A stretch of DNA of 64,000 bases from NCBI GenBank assembly GCA_040220235.1, contig JAVJTO010000070.1; one strand, given 5' to 3'. This DNA is from Coleofasciculus sp. B1-GNL1-01 (lineage in GTDB: Bacteria > Cyanobacteriota > Cyanobacteriia > Cyanobacteriales > Coleofasciculaceae). The notes below the pieces were generated by a model that saw nothing but the letters and a program-made list of their open reading frames with translations, was not told the origin of the DNA and ran no database searches. A program made the translations under genes and the position numbers. Positions 42,965 to 54,584 of the stretch are shown in pieces (positions within the stretch are counted from its first letter, which is position 1; each line of letters begins with the position of its first letter).

Positions 42965-43070
42965 CTGTTCGGCATTTAATTAAACCTTATAAATGCCAAG
43001 AATGGCAAAATCCTTGTAGTGCGAGCATCTTGCTCGCTGCTAATACCCAATTTAAATGCATGACAGCTTA
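42965..43070. mobile_element. MITE-like element, same family as 37915-38018
   Basis: CTGTTCGGCATTTAA...GCGAGCATCTTGCTCGC...TAAATGCATGACAGCTTA. Confidence 0.75.
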
Positions 43071-43290
43071 TAATCCACCAACACAAGAGTAGGAAAAAAC
43101 TATTCCCTGGTGACTGGACTACACTGTGTTAGAAAGTGCTGTAAATCCTAGCTCCAAGCTTAACAATTCACGGGGCAGACCATTTTTCCTTAAAAAGTAA
43201 GTTGCATACACCCTCTAGAAGTCTTTGAGAGGAAGATGAGTTATTTTTCGGTAAATGCTTCCAAGATTTTGACCTATGCCTACTTGACCT

Positions 43291-43803
43291 ATGCCTACTT
43301 ACAGTGTCGGTGATGTTTTAGACATCATCAAAACTTTAACTCCTGAACAGAAGCTAGAATTACAGGGGCAACTCCCTAGTGTTTTAGCGACTATCCCGTC
43401 GGACTCAACACGTCCTGCGAAGAGTCAAAGCATGAGTGGAGTCAATATTACGGGAAGTAGTGATATTGATCTGAGTCAACTTCAAGCTGATGGGGGGAGC
43501 CAGATCAACCAAAGCAAGGCTCAAGCAACATTGCCAAATGCTGATTTGCAGGAAGCCCTGGAGCTGTTACAAAGGTTGAAGCAGGCGATCGCCTGCCATG
43601 ATAAACTTAATCCTCTGGTCAAAGAAGCGGCAGAGGAAAAGATCCAGACTATCCAGAAAGAAGTAGAAAAAGCACAACCTGATAAAGATTTAGTCAGCCA
43701 AGCAATTTCAACCTTGAAAAAAGGATTGGAAGGGGTGGAAGAACTAGCAGAACCCGTAACTAAAGTGGCTAGTTTAGTGGCGAAAGCTTGGATGGTGGTC
43801 TGA
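43291..43803 (+). CDS. Small protein: short N-terminal helix pair, Q/N/S-rich motif, C-terminal helical domain; candidate NLR partner
   Basis: 170-aa ORF whose TGA overlaps the next ATG (TGATG 43801-43805). Confidence 0.85.
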   Translation: MPTYSVGDVLDIIKTLTPEQKLELQGQLPSVLATIPSDSTRPAKSQSMSGVNITGSSDIDLSQLQADGGSQINQSKAQATLPNADLQEALELLQRLKQAIACHDKLNPLVKEAAEEKIQTIQKEVEKAQPDKDLVSQAISTLKKGLEGVEELAEPVTKVASLVAKAWMVV

Positions 43804-46800
43804 TGATACAGGAAGTTCCCCTAAATCCCGGTGACGGCGGTAGTGAACAGGCTATCCACGATGTATCTGTGGTCAATAGTCAAAATGTGACGTTCAATCA
43901 GACGCAAATTATCCAGATCTCAGTGGAAGAGATCAAGACTCGGACACTCATTACGACATCACCCTATAAGGGATTGAAAACGTTTGAGTTAGAGGATAAG
44001 GAGCGGTTTTTTGGGCGAGATCAATGTCTTACTGGCTTGGTGAACGAGCTAGAACAAACTAATCTGATTTTGCTTTTGGGAGCATCGGGAAGTGGCAAGT
44101 CTTCAGTCATTCGAGCCGGTTTAATTCCTTGGTTGGCTCAAAAGTGGGGCAGTTATTTTGTCAGTCTAGTCTTTACGCCGGATCGAGACCCCTTTGATTC
44201 ACTCTATGCCAGTTTGTTGGGCAGGTATAAACAATCAGATTCACAGCTTGCTCGTCTTGTCAAGCCGGAAACATTAACTCAAGTGGTGCGATCGCTCAAA
44301 CATCAAGATGACTACTGGTTTATCCTGATCGATCAGTTTGAGGAGTTATTTACTACTACTGAATCAGACAAGCGGAATGTTTTTATCCAAGGGTTAGTCA
44401 ACCTTGTGAATACCCTAAGTAAAAAGAGCGATCACTCAGTTAAACTGGTAGCAACCATGCGGACAGACTTTCTAGATCGCTTGAGTCCCTATCCGGCTCT
44501 GATTAAACTGACGGATAAGCATCGTCCGATGATTGCTGATTTGCAAGCAGATGAGTTACGCCTAGCTATTGAGCAACCTGCTGCTCATCATGGCGTGGTG
44601 TTTGAATCAGGATTAGTGAAGGAAATTATTGATGATGTACAGGGACAAGCCGGATATTTACCCCTGTTGCAATACACCTTGAATTTGCTCTGGGAGATGG
44701 AAGTTCAGACTGAGAGCATTGAGGATCGGACGCTCAATCTCAGCAACTATCACAAGTTAGGTGGGGTGCGGGGCGCACTTCAGCAGCATGTTGATCGCAT
44801 CTACAGTGCTTTGTCTGACGCCGAACAAGTCGCTACCCGGAGAATTTGTCTCAAGTTAGTTGATATTGGTGCAGATACAAAATCTGGAACAGACTGGAAA
44901 CCTGTACGACGACGTGCTAACCGCTCGGAATTTAGTGAGCCGCTAGAGCAGACTGTTTTAACTCAGTTAGTGAATCAAAACCTGCTGGTGAGTAATCGGG
45001 TAAAAGAGTCTCAAGACAGCACAATCGAGATCGCCCATGAAGTATTACTTACCTCTTGGAAAACGCTGAATATTTGGATCGCGGAAAACCGTCAGGCGAT
45101 CGCCCTGCGGAATCGTTTAAATGATGATGTGATTCAGTGGCAAAAGACAACATCATCTGAGGACTTGTGGTCGGGATCTCGCTTAGAGCAGGCTTTAGAA
45201 CTGAGGCAGAATCAAACCTTTAATCAGGTTCTTGGTGGTTTTAGTCCAACAGCCAATCAGTTTTTAGAGCAAAGTCGGGATAAGCGCGATCAGCTAGAAA
45301 AAGAAAAACTTAGAAGAACTCAACTGACGGTGATAACGGCGATCAGTGTTGCTGTCTTACTAGGAGGTTTCTGGTGGCGCTCTGAGCGATTAAGACAAGA
45401 GACAGTATTGAGAGAAAATATTGCCACGGCAAGAAATCTATTGACCACAGACCCAACTCAAGCAGCAGTTAGATCCATCTACGTCGCAGGACAAAGCGCA
45501 GCTCACTACACAAATCTTTTGAGTTCAACAGAGAGTGTTTTGTTGGATGGTATTCAGAGAGCAAGAGAGGAAAATGTTTTCAATGAACATGAAGGACAAG
45601 TTTTATCTGTTGCCATGAGTCCTGATGGTCAAACAATCGCTAGTGCTGGGGCAGATGGCAAGGTAATACTTATTGATCTTCTAGACTTTTCAAAAGAAGT
45701 CATAGAAAATTTTCAGGATTCTTCAGCTACAAGTGTGGCATTTAGTCACAAGGGGCAATTTTTAGCAAGTGCTGATAGCAATGGAAATGTAAAAATTCGT
45801 CGATTGGAAGATCACTCTCTTGTGTGTGACTCTCCAAGCGAGGATGATAACATTTATTATCAATCAATATACGGTCTTGACCTTAAGACAATAGTGGAAT
45901 TTAATCCTAAAAATGAAACTTTTTTAGTTAATGCAGGTCCCAACAATCAGATACATCAATTACAACTAAGAAATAGAAATTGCAAGAAACAAAATATTTT
46001 GACTTTAGAAGATAAAAATGTAGATCAGAATCACGATTACGAAGTATATCCTCCATTAGCGAGATCTATCGCATTTAGCCCTGATGGACAACAATTAGCT
46101 ATTGGCTATGATTCTGGATTAATATTACATGATCTGTTAAATGAGACCACCCAAGTTTTATGGGAAGGAAGATCTGCAGAACCAGTTGAGTCGATATCTT
46201 TTAAAAATCGTATCTTCTTCAGTATCTGTATTGGTGAATGGGCAGAGGGTAATTCAATAACGATTAAAACACTCGATAAATCTCATAGTGACTTTAGAAC
46301 TCCTGAAGGATTCACAGTACATGAAGACTGTTCTCGCGCTGTTTTAGTAGACTCTGAGACTGACAGGATTATTAGCGGTGGTAATGATCGGGGTGATCGT
46401 AGTAATTTAGTTACCTTCATCTCATGGAAAGAGAGAGATTTATTTTCATTTATTGGTCATAAAGGCAGGGTGAATGCCTTGGCAATGAGTTCCGATAAAA
46501 AGCATCTTGTCAGTGCAGGTAGTGATGGCACAGTTAGACTGTGGAGCGTAGAAAATTTTCCTAACGATGTTGCTAGTCTTTTTAGGAATCAATTCAATGA
46601 GCAGTTAGAGGTTTGGGATTTAGTTGGTCGTCAGTTAAATCTAAAGAAACAAGACGAAGCAATTGAAATTCAAGGGAAAAGCGAAAGTCTAATTAAGACA
46701 GATGGTAAAAGCACTCCATTTGTTTCTCAGCAACGATATCCCAAGAAGTTTTTCGGGTACGATGGTCAGACAGTGATAACAGTAGAAACTATCTCAGCAT

Positions 46801-47375
46801 CTTCAAGCGAAACACCAGGTACTCCTGCTACTCTCCAACAATTAATTCTAATCAATCAAAGAGAAACAAATTCTCAATTAGGAAAAATTGAGCTGTCGGG
46901 TGAAGTTTGGTTTGCAGCCGCTAATCATAAACAGAATAAGCTCATAGTAATCAAACCAGACAAAATTGAGATTTTCAACTTCCAAGGGACACAATTAGAT
47001 TCATTCCCAAACGACAAAGAAGCTAATGTTGCTGCCATTAGCCCCGATGGGAGAATGTTCGCAATAGCTAAAGAGCATTTTAGTCCTGGTTTCCGCGCTA
47101 CTGCTTTACAACTCTTTGATATGAAAGGCAAAGCTATAGCAAACTTTGAGAATGAAGGTATAGTAAGCGTGTTAGGATTTAGTTCTGACAGCAGACACGT
47201 TATAACTGAGAAATTCGGTGAAATTCATTTATTTCCTGCTAATTGGCAAGCCTCCTTAGAAATTCTCTGCGATCGCCTTCGTCATCATCCTGTCTTGACT
47301 AATCCCCAAGACGAGATTGCCAGAGGTGCCAGGGAAACGTGTCAGAGTTATGCTCCAAGCTGGCAAGCCAAGTGA
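43803..47375 (+). CDS. NLR-like STAND NTPase (nSTAND1-type) with a TM helix and WD40 repeats
   Basis: SPYKGL..F, FFGR, GASGSGKSS..RAGL, IDQFEELF, PLLQYTL, EIAHE, TM segment VITAISVAVLLGGFWW, WD40 units (GH.G.V..LAMS.D...LVSAGSDGTVRLW). Confidence 0.92.
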   Translation: MIQEVPLNPGDGGSEQAIHDVSVVNSQNVTFNQTQIIQISVEEIKTRTLITTSPYKGLKTFELEDKERFFGRDQCLTGLVNELEQTNLILLLGASGSGKSSVIRAGLIPWLAQKWGSYFVSLVFTPDRDPFDSLYASLLGRYKQSDSQLARLVKPETLTQVVRSLKHQDDYWFILIDQFEELFTTTESDKRNVFIQGLVNLVNTLSKKSDHSVKLVATMRTDFLDRLSPYPALIKLTDKHRPMIADLQADELRLAIEQPAAHHGVVFESGLVKEIIDDVQGQAGYLPLLQYTLNLLWEMEVQTESIEDRTLNLSNYHKLGGVRGALQQHVDRIYSALSDAEQVATRRICLKLVDIGADTKSGTDWKPVRRRANRSEFSEPLEQTVLTQLVNQNLLVSNRVKESQDSTIEIAHEVLLTSWKTLNIWIAENRQAIALRNRLNDDVIQWQKTTSSEDLWSGSRLEQALELRQNQTFNQVLGGFSPTANQFLEQSRDKRDQLEKEKLRRTQLTVITAISVAVLLGGFWWRSERLRQETVLRENIATARNLLTTDPTQAAVRSIYVAGQSAAHYTNLLSSTESVLLDGIQRAREENVFNEHEGQVLSVAMSPDGQTIASAGADGKVILIDLLDFSKEVIENFQDSSATSVAFSHKGQFLASADSNGNVKIRRLEDHSLVCDSPSEDDNIYYQSIYGLDLKTIVEFNPKNETFLVNAGPNNQIHQLQLRNRNCKKQNILTLEDKNVDQNHDYEVYPPLARSIAFSPDGQQLAIGYDSGLILHDLLNETTQVLWEGRSAEPVESISFKNRIFFSICIGEWAEGNSITIKTLDKSHSDFRTPEGFTVHEDCSRAVLVDSETDRIISGGNDRGDRSNLVTFISWKERDLFSFIGHKGRVNALAMSSDKKHLVSAGSDGTVRLWSVENFPNDVASLFRNQFNEQLEVWDLVGRQLNLKKQDEAIEIQGKSESLIKTDGKSTPFVSQQRYPKKFFGYDGQTVITVETISASSSETPGTPATLQQLILINQRETNSQLGKIELSGEVWFAAANHKQNKLIVIKPDKIEIFNFQGTQLDSFPNDKEANVAAISPDGRMFAIAKEHFSPGFRATALQLFDMKGKAIANFENEGIVSVLGFSSDSRHVITEKFGEIHLFPANWQASLEILCDRLRHHPVLTNPQDEIARGARETCQSYAPSWQAK

Positions 47376-47477
47376 TTGTAAGAGGTAAGGAATTTATTAT
47401 GCTAGAACGGGTGAGGTAGTAAGGATTGACTAGGCAATCATCGCCGCTTCAATGAAGTTTGGCATTGTATGCTAGCC

Positions 47478-47825
47478 TCAAAACAGTTCTTCGCTTTGCA
47501 TCAAGTCCTGTACTTTTCCTACATAACTCACTAGACTCCAGACTTCGTCTTGAACGGAATAGGTAGCTACTACATGAATATCAACGCATCTATATATATA
47601 TTGATCAACGTTTAACAAGTCAAAAGCCTCGTACACCCAAACCATTCTTCGGGAACGAGACCATTGAACGGCAGTGGCACTAACCGCACCCGATGCTACC
47701 AGTAAATCTGCGGTCGCGTTGACAATTCCGGCTGGCAGTATCTTTTCCATTCCGGGCTTCGCGCCCAGAGTGACAATGTTCAGTGCTACCTTACGCGCTG
47801 TGTTACTGGGTTTGTCTTTGTACAT
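47478..47825 (-). pseudogene. Probable N-terminal fragment of an LCM-type class I methyltransferase
   Basis: The N-terminus (KPSNTARKVA) is typical of this family, but no SAM-binding motif follows and the tail looks non-coding. Confidence 0.4.
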
Positions 47826-52205: not shown

Positions 52206-54584
52206 ATGGGTAAACGATCGCTGTCGGCAAATGCACAGGGTATCATCCAAGCCAAAGAAGCCATGGCGCGGAAACAGTGGACTCATCAAGTGCTGGCGAA
52301 AAAAGTTGGCGTGAAGACTCGCCTATCCATCAGTAAATTTTTTGCGGGTCGTCCCGTTGAGCGACGGATTTTCATTGAGATTTGCCGACAACTGGATTTA
52401 TCCTGGCAAGAGGTGGCGACTCAGGTTCCAGACGAGAGGCTATCCCCGGCGAGGAATCCTGCGGCAAATCAGCCTGTTGAACTCAACGCCTTAGTGGCTG
52501 AGGTTCGTGCTTGCTGCCAGGATCAGATTGAGACTCAATTGGATACCGTGCAATTATGGGATGTGCCTCAACCAATTTCCCTAGCGGATATTTATATTGA
52601 TGTAGAGGTTTGGCAAGATATCCCCAACCGACGCTGGTTCGACTTGGCGGATTGGCGGCGACATTTTCAGGTGAATCGGGATCAGTTTTATGAGTTGAGT
52701 CCGGATGGAACCTCTCAGGAACGAGTGTTGGCAATGGCGGTATTGGCTAGACTTACCAACCTGATTATATGGGGGAAACCGGGAACGGGTAAAACGACGT
52801 TTTTGCAGTATGTAGCGACTCAGTGTAATCACGGCAACTTTGCCCCAGATCGGGTGCCGATTTATATTGAATTGAGGGATTTGGTGCAAGATGCCAATAC
52901 GCTGAGTTTGCTGGATTATATCTGCCAAGACTTTAGCGATCGCGGTGTCTCTGGGGAAACGGTGAAAACCTTACTCCAAGCGGGAAAACTGCTGATTTTG
53001 CTAGATGGCTGGGATGAAGTCTCCCCGTCGAGGCGTTTTTCCCTCTTTAACAAACTGCGGTGGTTCTGTAATCGTTATCCTAAAAATCGCTATGTGATCA
53101 CCTGTCGCACTGGGGCGGATTTGTATCGGTTTGGTCGATTTACTGAGGTGGAACTCGCCGATTGGACGTTGACTCAAATTAGCGATTTTGCCCAGAAGTA
53201 CTTTGTGGCGGTGGCTGGTGTGAATTGGGAGAAGGGGTTAGCGAAAGCGGCTGAGTTTAGGGTACAACTGGAGTATCCGGAAAACCGGACGATTCAGGAC
53301 ATGGCAAAAACCCCTCTATTACTCAGTTTCATCTGTCATGTCTTCCAATCCCAAGCCCATTTTCCTCGCCAACAGGCTAGACTCTATCAGGAAGGATTGG
53401 ATATTCTGCTCCAGAAATGGGATGATGGCAAAGGGGTTGAGCGAGATTCCGCTGAACAACCCTTGTCTTTGGTGAATCGGTTGAAGTTGTTGGATCAAGT
53501 GGCGTCTGTTACCTTTACTCAACAGCGGTATTGCTTTGCTCAATCTCAGGTGGAACACTATATTGGTGACTATCTGCAAACACTCCCAGATTATCAAGAC
53601 GTTGATCCAGTTGGCTTACAAATACAGAGTCAAGGGATTTTAAACGCGATTGAATGTCACCATGGAGTATTGGTAGAGCGATCGCGGCGACTCTATTCCT
53701 TTGCGAATTGGAGTATTCAGCAATACCTCACCGCTAGAGAGTTTACCACGAAAACAGCCCAAAACCCCGACGCGATCGCGGAATTAGTGACGCACTTGAC
53801 CGAACAATCCTGGCGGGAGGTGTTTTTATTCACCGTCACCCGATTGCGTCACCCTGAAGGATTAATCCAGGCGATGAAACAAGGGGTGGATCAGTTATTG
53901 ATACCGGATCAGCGGTTAGGGCAATTCGTGAACTGGATAGATCATCGCTCCAAATCTAGCCCATTATCTCACAAGTCAGCCGCCGTGCGTGCCTTTGATT
54001 TTGCCCTGGCTTTAATTTTGGATCAGGCGTTAGTCCAAACACTCAATTCATATCGGCTTAATCAACCTTTGGAAGCGCCACCGTTACAGCAATTACCCTC
54101 ATGCTTATCCTTACCCCAAAAATTGGACGTTGAGTTTACATTACCGGAGGCGTTAGCGTTTAAAACGAAGGAATATTTACCCAAGGAGTCGTTTCCGCCA
54201 CCGTTATATCGGGCTTTAATCCTTAACGCTACCCTGGATTATAGTCTCAAGTTTAACCTCGCTCTTAATCCTGAGCGTCTGGGTCAATTAGCGCGATCGC
54301 TCAACACTTTACTCCATCCGGTGTTTGAGTTTCAATCTAACCTGGAGATATTGAACCAATGGTGGTCGAATCATCGTCACTCTTGGATCGAGCGAGTCTG
54401 CTTTTTCCTGGGACAACATCACCAAGGGGAACATGATTGGCAGTTTAGCAGAAACCAGAGGCGATCGCTATGGGATTATTATGACGCCAATCAATTATTG
54501 GTGGATTGTTTAAGGATCAGTGATGATCTCAATACTCAGGTGCAGCAACACATTGAGGACGAGTTATTTATGTATCGGGAATAG
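52206..54584 (+). CDS. HTH-NACHT NTPase with a cyanobacterial C-terminal helical domain
   Basis: N-terminal HTH, GKPGTGKTT, LLLDGWDE-type Walker B, ITCR, TPLLL, C-terminal DWQF...YYDANQLLVDCL. Confidence 0.9.
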   Translation: MGKRSLSANAQGIIQAKEAMARKQWTHQVLAKKVGVKTRLSISKFFAGRPVERRIFIEICRQLDLSWQEVATQVPDERLSPARNPAANQPVELNALVAEVRACCQDQIETQLDTVQLWDVPQPISLADIYIDVEVWQDIPNRRWFDLADWRRHFQVNRDQFYELSPDGTSQERVLAMAVLARLTNLIIWGKPGTGKTTFLQYVATQCNHGNFAPDRVPIYIELRDLVQDANTLSLLDYICQDFSDRGVSGETVKTLLQAGKLLILLDGWDEVSPSRRFSLFNKLRWFCNRYPKNRYVITCRTGADLYRFGRFTEVELADWTLTQISDFAQKYFVAVAGVNWEKGLAKAAEFRVQLEYPENRTIQDMAKTPLLLSFICHVFQSQAHFPRQQARLYQEGLDILLQKWDDGKGVERDSAEQPLSLVNRLKLLDQVASVTFTQQRYCFAQSQVEHYIGDYLQTLPDYQDVDPVGLQIQSQGILNAIECHHGVLVERSRRLYSFANWSIQQYLTAREFTTKTAQNPDAIAELVTHLTEQSWREVFLFTVTRLRHPEGLIQAMKQGVDQLLIPDQRLGQFVNWIDHRSKSSPLSHKSAAVRAFDFALALILDQALVQTLNSYRLNQPLEAPPLQQLPSCLSLPQKLDVEFTLPEALAFKTKEYLPKESFPPPLYRALILNATLDYSLKFNLALNPERLGQLARSLNTLLHPVFEFQSNLEILNQWWSNHRHSWIERVCFFLGQHHQGEHDWQFSRNQRRSLWDYYDANQLLVDCLRISDDLNTQVQQHIEDELFMYRE

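Follow-up and report, generated by a model that had tools for sequence, protein, structure and literature searches.

A stretch of 64,000 nucleotides from Coleofasciculus sp. B1-GNL1-01 (the window) carries two overlapping plus-strand genes that may form an NLR-type immune module wired by a common beta-arch motif, an account which, taken as a whole, we regard as evenly balanced. The partner gene (43291..43803) is a 170-aa ORF, and the NLR-like receptor gene (43803..47375, ATG at 43803) encodes 1190 aa. A preliminary description of this DNA had reported a 170-aa ORF coupled by TGATG to a STAND-TM-WD40 gene and had placed a shared motif at 43426-43485 in the partner and 43848-43907 in the NLR; both genes, their stop/start overlap (43801..43805, read from the sequence) and the two motifs were indeed found at these sites. 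ATGA or TGATG overlaps join the two genes at many homologous loci, and homologous receptors start at the overlap about 15 aa before the motif, which argues against a receptor start downstream of it. Contigs from four RNA-library runs cover both genes, one of them spanning 43042-47617, and such contigs are uninformative on transcription, strand or a joint transcript.

The receptor consists, in this order, of the motif, an nSTAND1 module, a membrane helix and WD40 repeats. Its NTPase (aa 54-452, 43962..45158) is of the nSTAND1 class (PF20703, E 8.8e-109) and neither NB-ARC nor NACHT according to Pfam, with a Walker A (GASGSGKS) and a Walker B discernible in the sequence. A hydrophobic 19-mer preceded by a basic stretch (aa 506-524, 45318..45374, mean hydropathy 1.65) is predicted to be a membrane helix, and a comparable segment with a hydropathy of at least 1.65 is present in 13 of 15 complete homologues. 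The WD40 sensor region detected by Pfam (about aa 575-1140, 45525..47222) is swapped or divergent among homologues, being 5-43% identical in 14 of the 15 complete ones and 99% identical in the near-identical L090. No enzymatic effector domain precedes the NTPase, as had been claimed: a spacer and the motif alone stand there, and the motif leads directly into a conserved strand, TQIIQISV. Other nSTAND1 receptors of the same genome have N-terminal domains of about 250-310 aa in place of the motif.

The partner was modelled by AlphaFold2 (54-row alignment, mean pLDDT 77.5) as a helical hairpin, a disordered linker holding the motif (pLDDT <50 over aa 38-79) and a four-helix bundle. The bundle (aa 84-170, 43540..43800), a candidate effector or regulator, has its hydrophobic helix last, as opposed to the releasable N-terminal helix of the HeLo/Bell/MLKL type. 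The last 18 residues have a mean hydropathy of 1.15 in 59 clade-A bundles and 1.19 in 18 bundles of a sister clade, clade B; these values are under the usual membrane-helix level, and the helix may merely pack within the bundle. The internal position of the motif, with a helical domain C-terminal to it, had been noticed before and proved to be family-wide, about 100 aa including the bundle following the motif.

The preliminary description had missed the conserved hairpin (aa 6-33, 43306..43389, helices 6-15 and 18-33 in the model), which occupies the slot of the CHAT, Bell or TRADD-N domains of relatives. It is 70-88% identical among nine close homologues and missing from some relatives, and its first helix is strongly amphipathic. 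A weak resemblance of the hairpin to the L7/L12 N-terminus (E 0.14) is a mere lead.

Searches of Pfam, NCBIfam and PADLOC with the partner gave no match above cut-off; in particular, no Bell (HetE-N-like), CHAT, TIR, hydrolase or cyclase domain was matched by Pfam in this protein. The best E value of a PDB sequence search was just 0.11, Foldseek returned no match at E<=0.001 against PDB and viral structures with both models, and the best hits of a VIA fold search (Z 11.9, 11.8 and 11.4) were generic four-helix bundles; HeLo, Bell and MLKL chains were not among the fold-search matches listed, which excludes nothing. A likeness to xenorhabdolysin B (E 8e-4, 18.8 bits vs a cut-off of 40) was taken as coiled-coil noise. 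The bundle bears a weak likeness to the C-terminal part of the PADLOC candidate PDC-M14B, below cut-off (E 1.5e-8), and to DUF4404 and DUF5955 (Atlas feature scores of 0.84-0.90, the families occurring on 14-23% of cluster members). Neither DUF matched the partner in Pfam, DUF5955 was not found in this genome, and a literature search covering five such names found none; all of these are leads only. That the partner has its helical domain behind the motif rather than in front of it suggests a class of effector or regulator not yet described.

At this locus the two motifs resemble each other only weakly. The previously proposed 20-residue match is present, but the motif is longer in both proteins, covering about aa 44-72 of the partner (43420..43506) and aa 16-42 of the receptor (43848..43928). 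The ungapped 20-mers share 5 of 20 residues (BLOSUM62 score 30), and the local score of 33 lies about 2 SD above that of shuffled NLR N-termini (23.5 +/- 4.6, maximum 43). Among the 5026 ORF N-termini of the genome, the receptor ranks first in the 20-mer match, tied with one other, and first with a profile built from eight partner-side motifs, while a generic 9-column profile places it at just rank 897. Conservation marks the motif in both genes despite predicted disorder: in comparisons with L001-L003 and L091, identity is 79-83% over partner aa 44-67 and 10-30% over the preceding spacer, and it reaches 89-93% over the receptor motif against 74-80% for the NTPase and 40-53% for the spacer. 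N, Q, S and G are enriched and K, P, L, E and R depleted, with V and I raised on the NLR side only. The DGGS reported next to the motif in both proteins follows it in the partner and precedes it in the NLR, and neither protein retains it in the three closest named loci, so we attribute this likeness to chance. The G-h-Q-h-G core of BASS3/RHIM is absent from both motifs by inspection, and a RHIM match was found neither in Pfam for the partner nor among the 25 families listed for the NLR. An uncontrolled complex prediction with three partner and three receptor motifs scored 0.01 against a mark of 0.32, which speaks neither for nor against pairing.

Across the family, the matching is strong. Partner homologues comprise 95 representatives at E<=0.001; L004 and P0093 were chance matches and were excluded from use. 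A STAND NTPase was found directly downstream at 68 of 91 homologous loci and not at the other 23, so that the adjacency asked about in the preliminary description is conserved. The motifs also co-vary: cognate motifs score 62.4 vs 40.3 for non-cognate ones in 27 non-redundant pairs (permutation p 5e-5, the lowest value that 20,000 permutations allow; two controls null), and clade B repeats this in 12 pairs (60.5 vs 33.9); the p-values are overstated because related pairs are not independent. Gapped motif variants are common to both members of a pair at L067, L066, L084, L087 and L015. This locus has the lowest cognate score of the 27 pairs. The same genome holds a second pair, on contig C36, which belongs to the sister clade and apparently has an NTPase type different from nSTAND1; when the two are crossed, the partner linker of this locus matches its own NLR with a score of 33 and the other NLR with a higher one of 41, the reverse cross scores 19 and the second pair itself 89, so that for this locus the crossing does not separate the two circuits. 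Judging from these comparisons, cognate matching is strong across the family and weak within this locus alone.

Further analysis linked the motif family to a known one. With a profile of partner-side motifs alone, each of the 57 cognate NLR N-termini scored beyond the 99.9th percentile of 10,052 genome termini, and four Bell tails reached 13.8-20.6 bits, scores that carry no composition correction; three of these tails are found unchanged in the published BASS2 set (datasets PMC8086366). Among the partners of related NLR N-termini are ordinary Bell proteins with BASS2-set tails, so the family is BASS2-related rather than wholly new. The motif of this locus shows marginal likeness to the four tails (shuffle fractions 0.013, 0.24, 0.19 and 0.077), and none of its core words turned up in the examined part of the dataset of Dyrka et al. 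By sequence comparison, then, the family, described earlier as unrecognised, connects to a cyanobacterial variant of BASS2, although this locus carries a divergent form. Its composition is near the reported BASS bias (Q, N, G, V and I enriched; K, P and L depleted). The proposal of an amyloid-signalling NLR/effector pair is supported in part, by adjacency, motif conservation, co-variation, BASS-like composition and a receptor start upstream of the motif, with the amendment that the motif is not unrelated to known ones.

Could the likeness reflect low-complexity linkers or a functionless local duplication, the genes being neighbours for other reasons? The match here is weak, N/Q/S-rich segments readily align and the profile scores are uncorrected for composition, but cognate pairs outscore non-cognate pairs of equal composition, gapped variants are pair-specific, and the motifs outdo their flanks in conservation in both genes; co-variation and conservation have already largely refuted this reading, which we hold to be highly improbable. 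Co-variation demonstrates matching, not polymerisation, and the receptor motif abuts TQIIQISV and could belong to the NTPase fold. The motifs might accordingly pair by ordinary beta-strand addition or as a short closed beta-solenoid on an NLR ring, giving stoichiometric recruitment without a self-propagating amyloid. Against this stands the link to BASS2, since motifs of the same class, BASS1, BASS3 and BASS11, formed fibrils and prions according to the accessible parts of the reports, which do not list BASS2 among those tested; non-amyloid pairing seems improbable to us, and amyloid templating from NLR to partner is likely.

A further question is whether the bundle is the executioner. It is often fused behind other effectors, among 27 scanned proteins behind CHAT in nine, TRADD-N in two and a Bell-like domain in one, and the CHAT domains look intact; a different helical tail replaces it in L175 and L177. 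This exchangeability and the fusion behind potentially self-sufficient effectors fit an accessory role. No NTPase follows the genes of L017 and L019-L024, long proteins that combine a motif-like stretch with a related tail. The hairpin, whose first helix is strongly amphipathic, fills the classic effector slot and shows higher identity than the bundle among close homologues, 82% against 70-75%. The bundle could accordingly be a cap, solubiliser or membrane tether within an amyloid-type coupling, the output lying in the domain before the motif (CHAT, Bell, TIR or TRADD-N; here the 33-aa hairpin) and proteins of motif and bundle modulating the receptor as adaptors or decoys. We consider this unlikely, though less so than non-amyloid pairing. 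In many operons, among them L015, L016, L125, L128 and L129, the partner is made of motif and bundle alone beside a motif-only NLR, which leaves the bundle as the sole candidate effector; at L078 the NLR itself begins with a copy of the bundle. No second strong motif match was found in this genome (12.3 bits for the best other protein vs 38.1), which gives no indication of an effector acting in trans, and the hydrophobic last helix is kept across two clades about 20% identical to each other. That the bundle is a mirror-image HeLo/Bell-like membrane effector is plausible, if a little short of even; the hairpin probably serves as an accessory that dimerises or restrains.

In the mechanism we favour, one membrane helix would anchor the receptor with motif and NTPase in the cytoplasm and the variable WD40 sensor probably on the opposite side. 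By analogy with NWD2/HET-S and Bab/Agp, ligand binding would oligomerise nSTAND1 and bring the N-terminal motifs close enough together to form an amyloid nucleus. This nucleus could template the matching motif of the partner, and the conversion might loosen the bundle and free its last helix for membrane attack, leading to cell death or arrest. The polarity would be reversed relative to HeLo and Bell, whose hydrophobic helix comes first and motif last.

The pair resembles the Bell/NLR pairs of BASS1-10 (Dyrka et al., bioRxiv 10.1101/2020.01.06.895854; PMC8086366) in its collinear, often overlapping genes, short NLR N-terminus whose motif has its counterpart in the neighbouring protein, richness in N, Q and G, occurrence in cyanobacteria and use of CHAT as one of the effectors. 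In contrast, their motif is C-terminal, whereas here it is internal, followed by a four-helix bundle and without a Bell domain in the partner; their screen, as far as its accessible text describes, covered Bell C-termini and NB-ARC/NACHT neighbours, not nSTAND1 receptors with a membrane helix. The Bab/Agp antiphage system (BASS11, bioRxiv 10.1101/2024.11.07.622273) is, in the available part of its report, likewise built from adjacent genes with a common motif and a small helical partner, and its working model is activation by templating, as proposed here; Bab, however, has its hydrophobic helix first and motif last, and Agp is a TPR-GreA/B-PIN protein rather than a STAND. Fungal NWD2/HET-S, in the partial accounts available, also combines an NTPase-WD40 receptor bearing a motif-only N-terminus with an adjoining effector gene, but has a NACHT, an HRAM motif in two repeats and an N-terminal HeLo domain, and those accounts describe no membrane helix in NWD2. 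All-in-one nSTAND1 receptors (nSTAND1 named in PMC8195603) share the NTPase clade and repeat sensors, but fill the N-terminal slot with varying effectors or EADs, a slot that here holds nothing but the motif, the partner being encoded separately. A search of largely open-access literature found no account of the motif-then-bundle layout.

The partner family is present in about 7-9% of sampled cyanobacterial genomes (29/401 and 36/401) and the sister clade in 56 of 391. The distribution is patchy; longer fused forms amount to one protein among 7999 scored candidates, which is weak evidence, and searched viral contigs held no relative. Patchiness and swapped sensors are only indirect hints of a role of the pair in protection against phage. 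A wider picture, less likely than not, is of widespread cyanobacterial mirror-image death effectors (motif, bundle, pore helix) templated by membrane-spanning nSTAND1 receptors sensing outside the cytoplasm, with the motif serving Bell, CHAT and bundle effectors alike as an exchangeable socket and several circuits with different motifs operating within one genome.

What is new is the layout, in which the motif precedes a four-helix bundle whose hydrophobic last helix is conserved, together with a membrane-spanning nSTAND1 receptor whose sensor ends are swappable. Should the bundle kill, it would be a new executioner of reversed polarity and would allow one to ask directly whether the order of domains matters for amyloid-triggered helix release, and the natural motif variants provide ready cognate and non-cognate pairs for studying specificity. 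Amyloid signalling motifs have been described, in the accessible literature, at effector C-termini and receptor N-termini, with screens confined to these and to NB-ARC/NACHT neighbours. Because an internal motif and an nSTAND1 receptor with a membrane helix fall outside such screens, and given how many cyanobacterial genomes carry the family, much of the amyloid signalling in bacteria may so far have escaped counting.

The partner ORF (170 aa, 43291-43803) and the receptor ORF (1190 aa, ATG at 43803 to 47375), both read from the sequence, are joined by a TGATG stop/start junction (43801-43805), and relatives are cyanobacterial. A domain scan of the receptor matched nSTAND1 (aa 54-452, E 9e-109) and WD40 repeats; a hydrophobic 19-mer lies at aa 506-524, and nothing but a 15-aa spacer and the motif precedes the NTPase. 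In the AlphaFold2 model of the partner, a low-confidence linker holding the motif (aa 38-79) separates a helical hairpin (aa 6-33) from four helices (aa 84-169). Across the partner family (95 representatives at 50% clustering, including one chance match), motif and bundle form the constant part, and the motif is preceded by a hairpin, by nothing, or, among 27 scanned proteins picked mostly by length, by CHAT (9/27), TRADD-N (2/27) or a Bell-like HetE-N domain (1/27). The final 18 residues of the bundle keep their hydrophobicity (mean 1.15 over 59 sequences; first helix, 0.04), and no library searched gave the bundle a name. These data bear out the preliminary description as to the TGATG overlap, the STAND-TM-WD40 layout, the motif-only receptor N-terminus lacking an enzymatic domain, and the internal motif with a helical domain C-terminal to it.

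A 15-bp tandem duplication (43270-43299) spans the partner start codon, its first copy forming an in-frame three-codon ORF (ATG-CCT-ACT-TGA) immediately before the true start. Upstream of the operon, a dispersed repeat of ~100 nt (42965-43071) has at least 39 other copies with 84-89% identity (40 scored of 354 candidates), and its summed depth in contigs from RNA libraries is very high. A further NLR-like gene 5 kb downstream (52206-54584) encodes NACHT (E 7e-17) and NCH2, with a weak N-terminal HTH match.

Within this locus, the claimed 20-residue match holds in part. The own receptor ranks first, with one tie, among the 5026 N-termini of the genome, but the two 20-mers share only five identities, with hydrophobic residues equally spaced, and their score of 33 exceeds that of shuffles (23.5 ± 4.6) by ~2 SD. 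The DGGS said to adjoin both motifs sits on opposite sides of them and is not conserved. The earlier observation is partly confirmed and its interpretation partly supported.

Gene adjacency, which had been proposed as a check, is common among homologues. In three overlapping samples, each of 401 genomes, profile searches matched 32 (E≤1e-5), 29 (E≤1e-9) and 36 (E≤1e-11) genomes, and a metagenome scan gave 34 loci; in the E≤1e-9 sample, none of 6 same-genus and none of 27 same-family genomes matched. Among 123 loci, some sequences being present twice, 111 had a terminal bundle match, 91 of them at E<1e-15, and in 68 of these 91 a Walker A ORF begins directly downstream. Four of the remaining 23 stop within 300 nt of a contig end. 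Sixteen of the other 19 were read: an NLR, NLR fragment or propeller-like ORF lies directly upstream in five (L011, L098, L052, L053, L068), a broken NTPase lies downstream in L103, a long ORF lies two genes on, on the opposite strand, in L115 and L118, and seven have no NLR within ~1.5 kb. The genome of one of these seven (L054) has an NLR with a like motif elsewhere (L169). In L116 (3075-5198), the last of the sixteen, a CHAT-motif-bundle gene is followed downstream by one that opens with a matching motif and continues into a protease-like domain, presumably trypsin-like, without Walker A. In L106, the partner is frameshifted and the receptor intact; both lie among genes that we take to be partition-like and resolvase-like, a setting that suggests a plasmid or island.

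Partner and receptor motifs also co-vary. From 68 pairs, six were removed (a duplicate, L078, one whose start was unresolved and three whose linker was broken or missing), and the 62 left gave 27 non-redundant pairs at 60% redundancy. The mean linker/N-terminus score was 62.4 for cognate and 40.3 for non-cognate pairs, and at all four redundancy levels the cognate value lay beyond every one of 20,000 permutations; because related pairs are not independent, the p-values overstate the support. Control comparisons were null (bundle versus N-terminus, p 0.93; linker versus NTPase, p 0.68). Ranked by raw score, the cognate receptor came first in only 6 of 27 rows, and its median normalised rank was 2, indicating pairing by subtype rather than one to one; the window locus has the lowest cognate score of the set and a normalised rank of 2. 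Among close homologues, both motifs are better conserved than their surroundings: identity is 89-93% for the receptor motif versus 40-53% for its spacer and 74-80% for the NTPase, and 79-83% for the partner motif versus 10-30% for its spacer. Motif conservation and co-variation, which the preliminary description had set as checks, are found in homologues. Receptor sensor regions share 5-43% identity in 14 of 15 complete homologues, a divergence that would be expected of immune receptors.

The motif, at first not recognised, was compared with BASS. When the search was turned round, with receptor N-termini as queries, 32 of 401 genomes matched; the 14 highest-ranked loci were circular, and the other 16 were examined. 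The upstream gene encodes a Bell-like protein whose motif is C-terminal in four (L181-L184; L181 HetE-N, E 2e-17), a clade-B bundle protein in three and a CHAT-motif protein with another helical tail in two, with broken remains in two more; in the rest, the partner is downstream (two), a contig edge intervenes (one) or there is no partner (two). In L175 and L177, the CHAT-motif protein has a different helical tail, and the receptors downstream of it are nSTAND1-like, their matching motif being of another type. The published file for cluster C02, equated with BASS2 by the dataset README, contains the tails of L181 and L183 and, except for one residue, that of L184 (PMC8086366, deposited files). 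A profile built from partner-side motifs only, scored without composition correction, gave 13.8-20.6 bits for the four Bell tails and 9.4 bits for the window receptor N-terminus. With this profile, all 57 distinct cognate receptor N-termini exceeded 7.9 bits, the 99.9th percentile for 10,052 termini from the genome. A terminal QAG[RG]D is shared by many family members and by BASS1 (PMC8086366). From the Bell tails in the BASS2 set and the profile scores, the motif family is, judged by sequence, BASS2-related, with the window locus at its divergent end. The pair would work like BASS systems but differs from them as published in three defining features (motif position, effector domain and NTPase clade), and is therefore not filed as a BASS member. 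The literature searched gave no account of the motif-then-bundle layout, and the BASS logos, Table S2 and BASS11 alignment, outside that search, may hold members; a fungal paper names internal motifs within NLRs as possible scaffolds (PMC9815663).

A second pair in the same genome (G000:C36:296-3264, L124, minus strand) comprises a 138-aa motif-plus-bundle protein, encoded 11 nt before an 846-aa NTPase; 13 motif residues are identical between the two, and no other pair of the family offers so clean a test case. Its clade is the sister of the partner's clade (HHalign probability 98.5; folds alike), and its profile matched 56 of 391 genomes. A Walker A ORF lies downstream in 18 of 33 sister-clade loci read, a count that retains L140, a false call; the labels TIR for L140 and caspase-like are our presumptions from the sequence. 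Twelve non-redundant pairs scored 60.5 (cognate) versus 33.9 (non-cognate).

In HET-S and Bab, as described in the parts of those reports consulted, NLR oligomerisation templates the partner motif and frees a hydrophobic helix (10.1101/2020.01.06.895854; 10.1101/2024.11.07.622273). Alongside the observed architecture, adjacency, co-variation and BASS2 link, receptor oligomerisation probably templates the partner's motif by analogy with these systems. Against this reading, the linker of the window partner scores higher with the C36 receptor (41) than with its own (33). The order would be reversed relative to HET-S and Bab, with the last bundle helix as the one released. Reversed-order release is supported because motif-plus-bundle partners adjoin motif-only receptors and because the L078 NLR starts with a bundle copy; we would give the whole chain, from templating through release, even chances or slightly worse. 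The L078 NLR (G717:C35, plus strand), directly after a CHAT-motif-bundle gene, has this four-helix copy followed by the motif, perhaps from recent duplication. Three points count against bundle-helix release: in relatives the bundle is also found behind CHAT and Bell, the tail is exchangeable, and the output could instead be the N-terminal hairpin.

Twelve loci (L017, L019-L024, L027, L028, L030, L033, L035) encode long cyanobacterial proteins (500-800 aa) that end in a stretch rich in G, N and S plus a helical tail that is distantly related; no NTPase lies downstream. Judging from such proteins, the motif/helical-tail module may be much more widespread.
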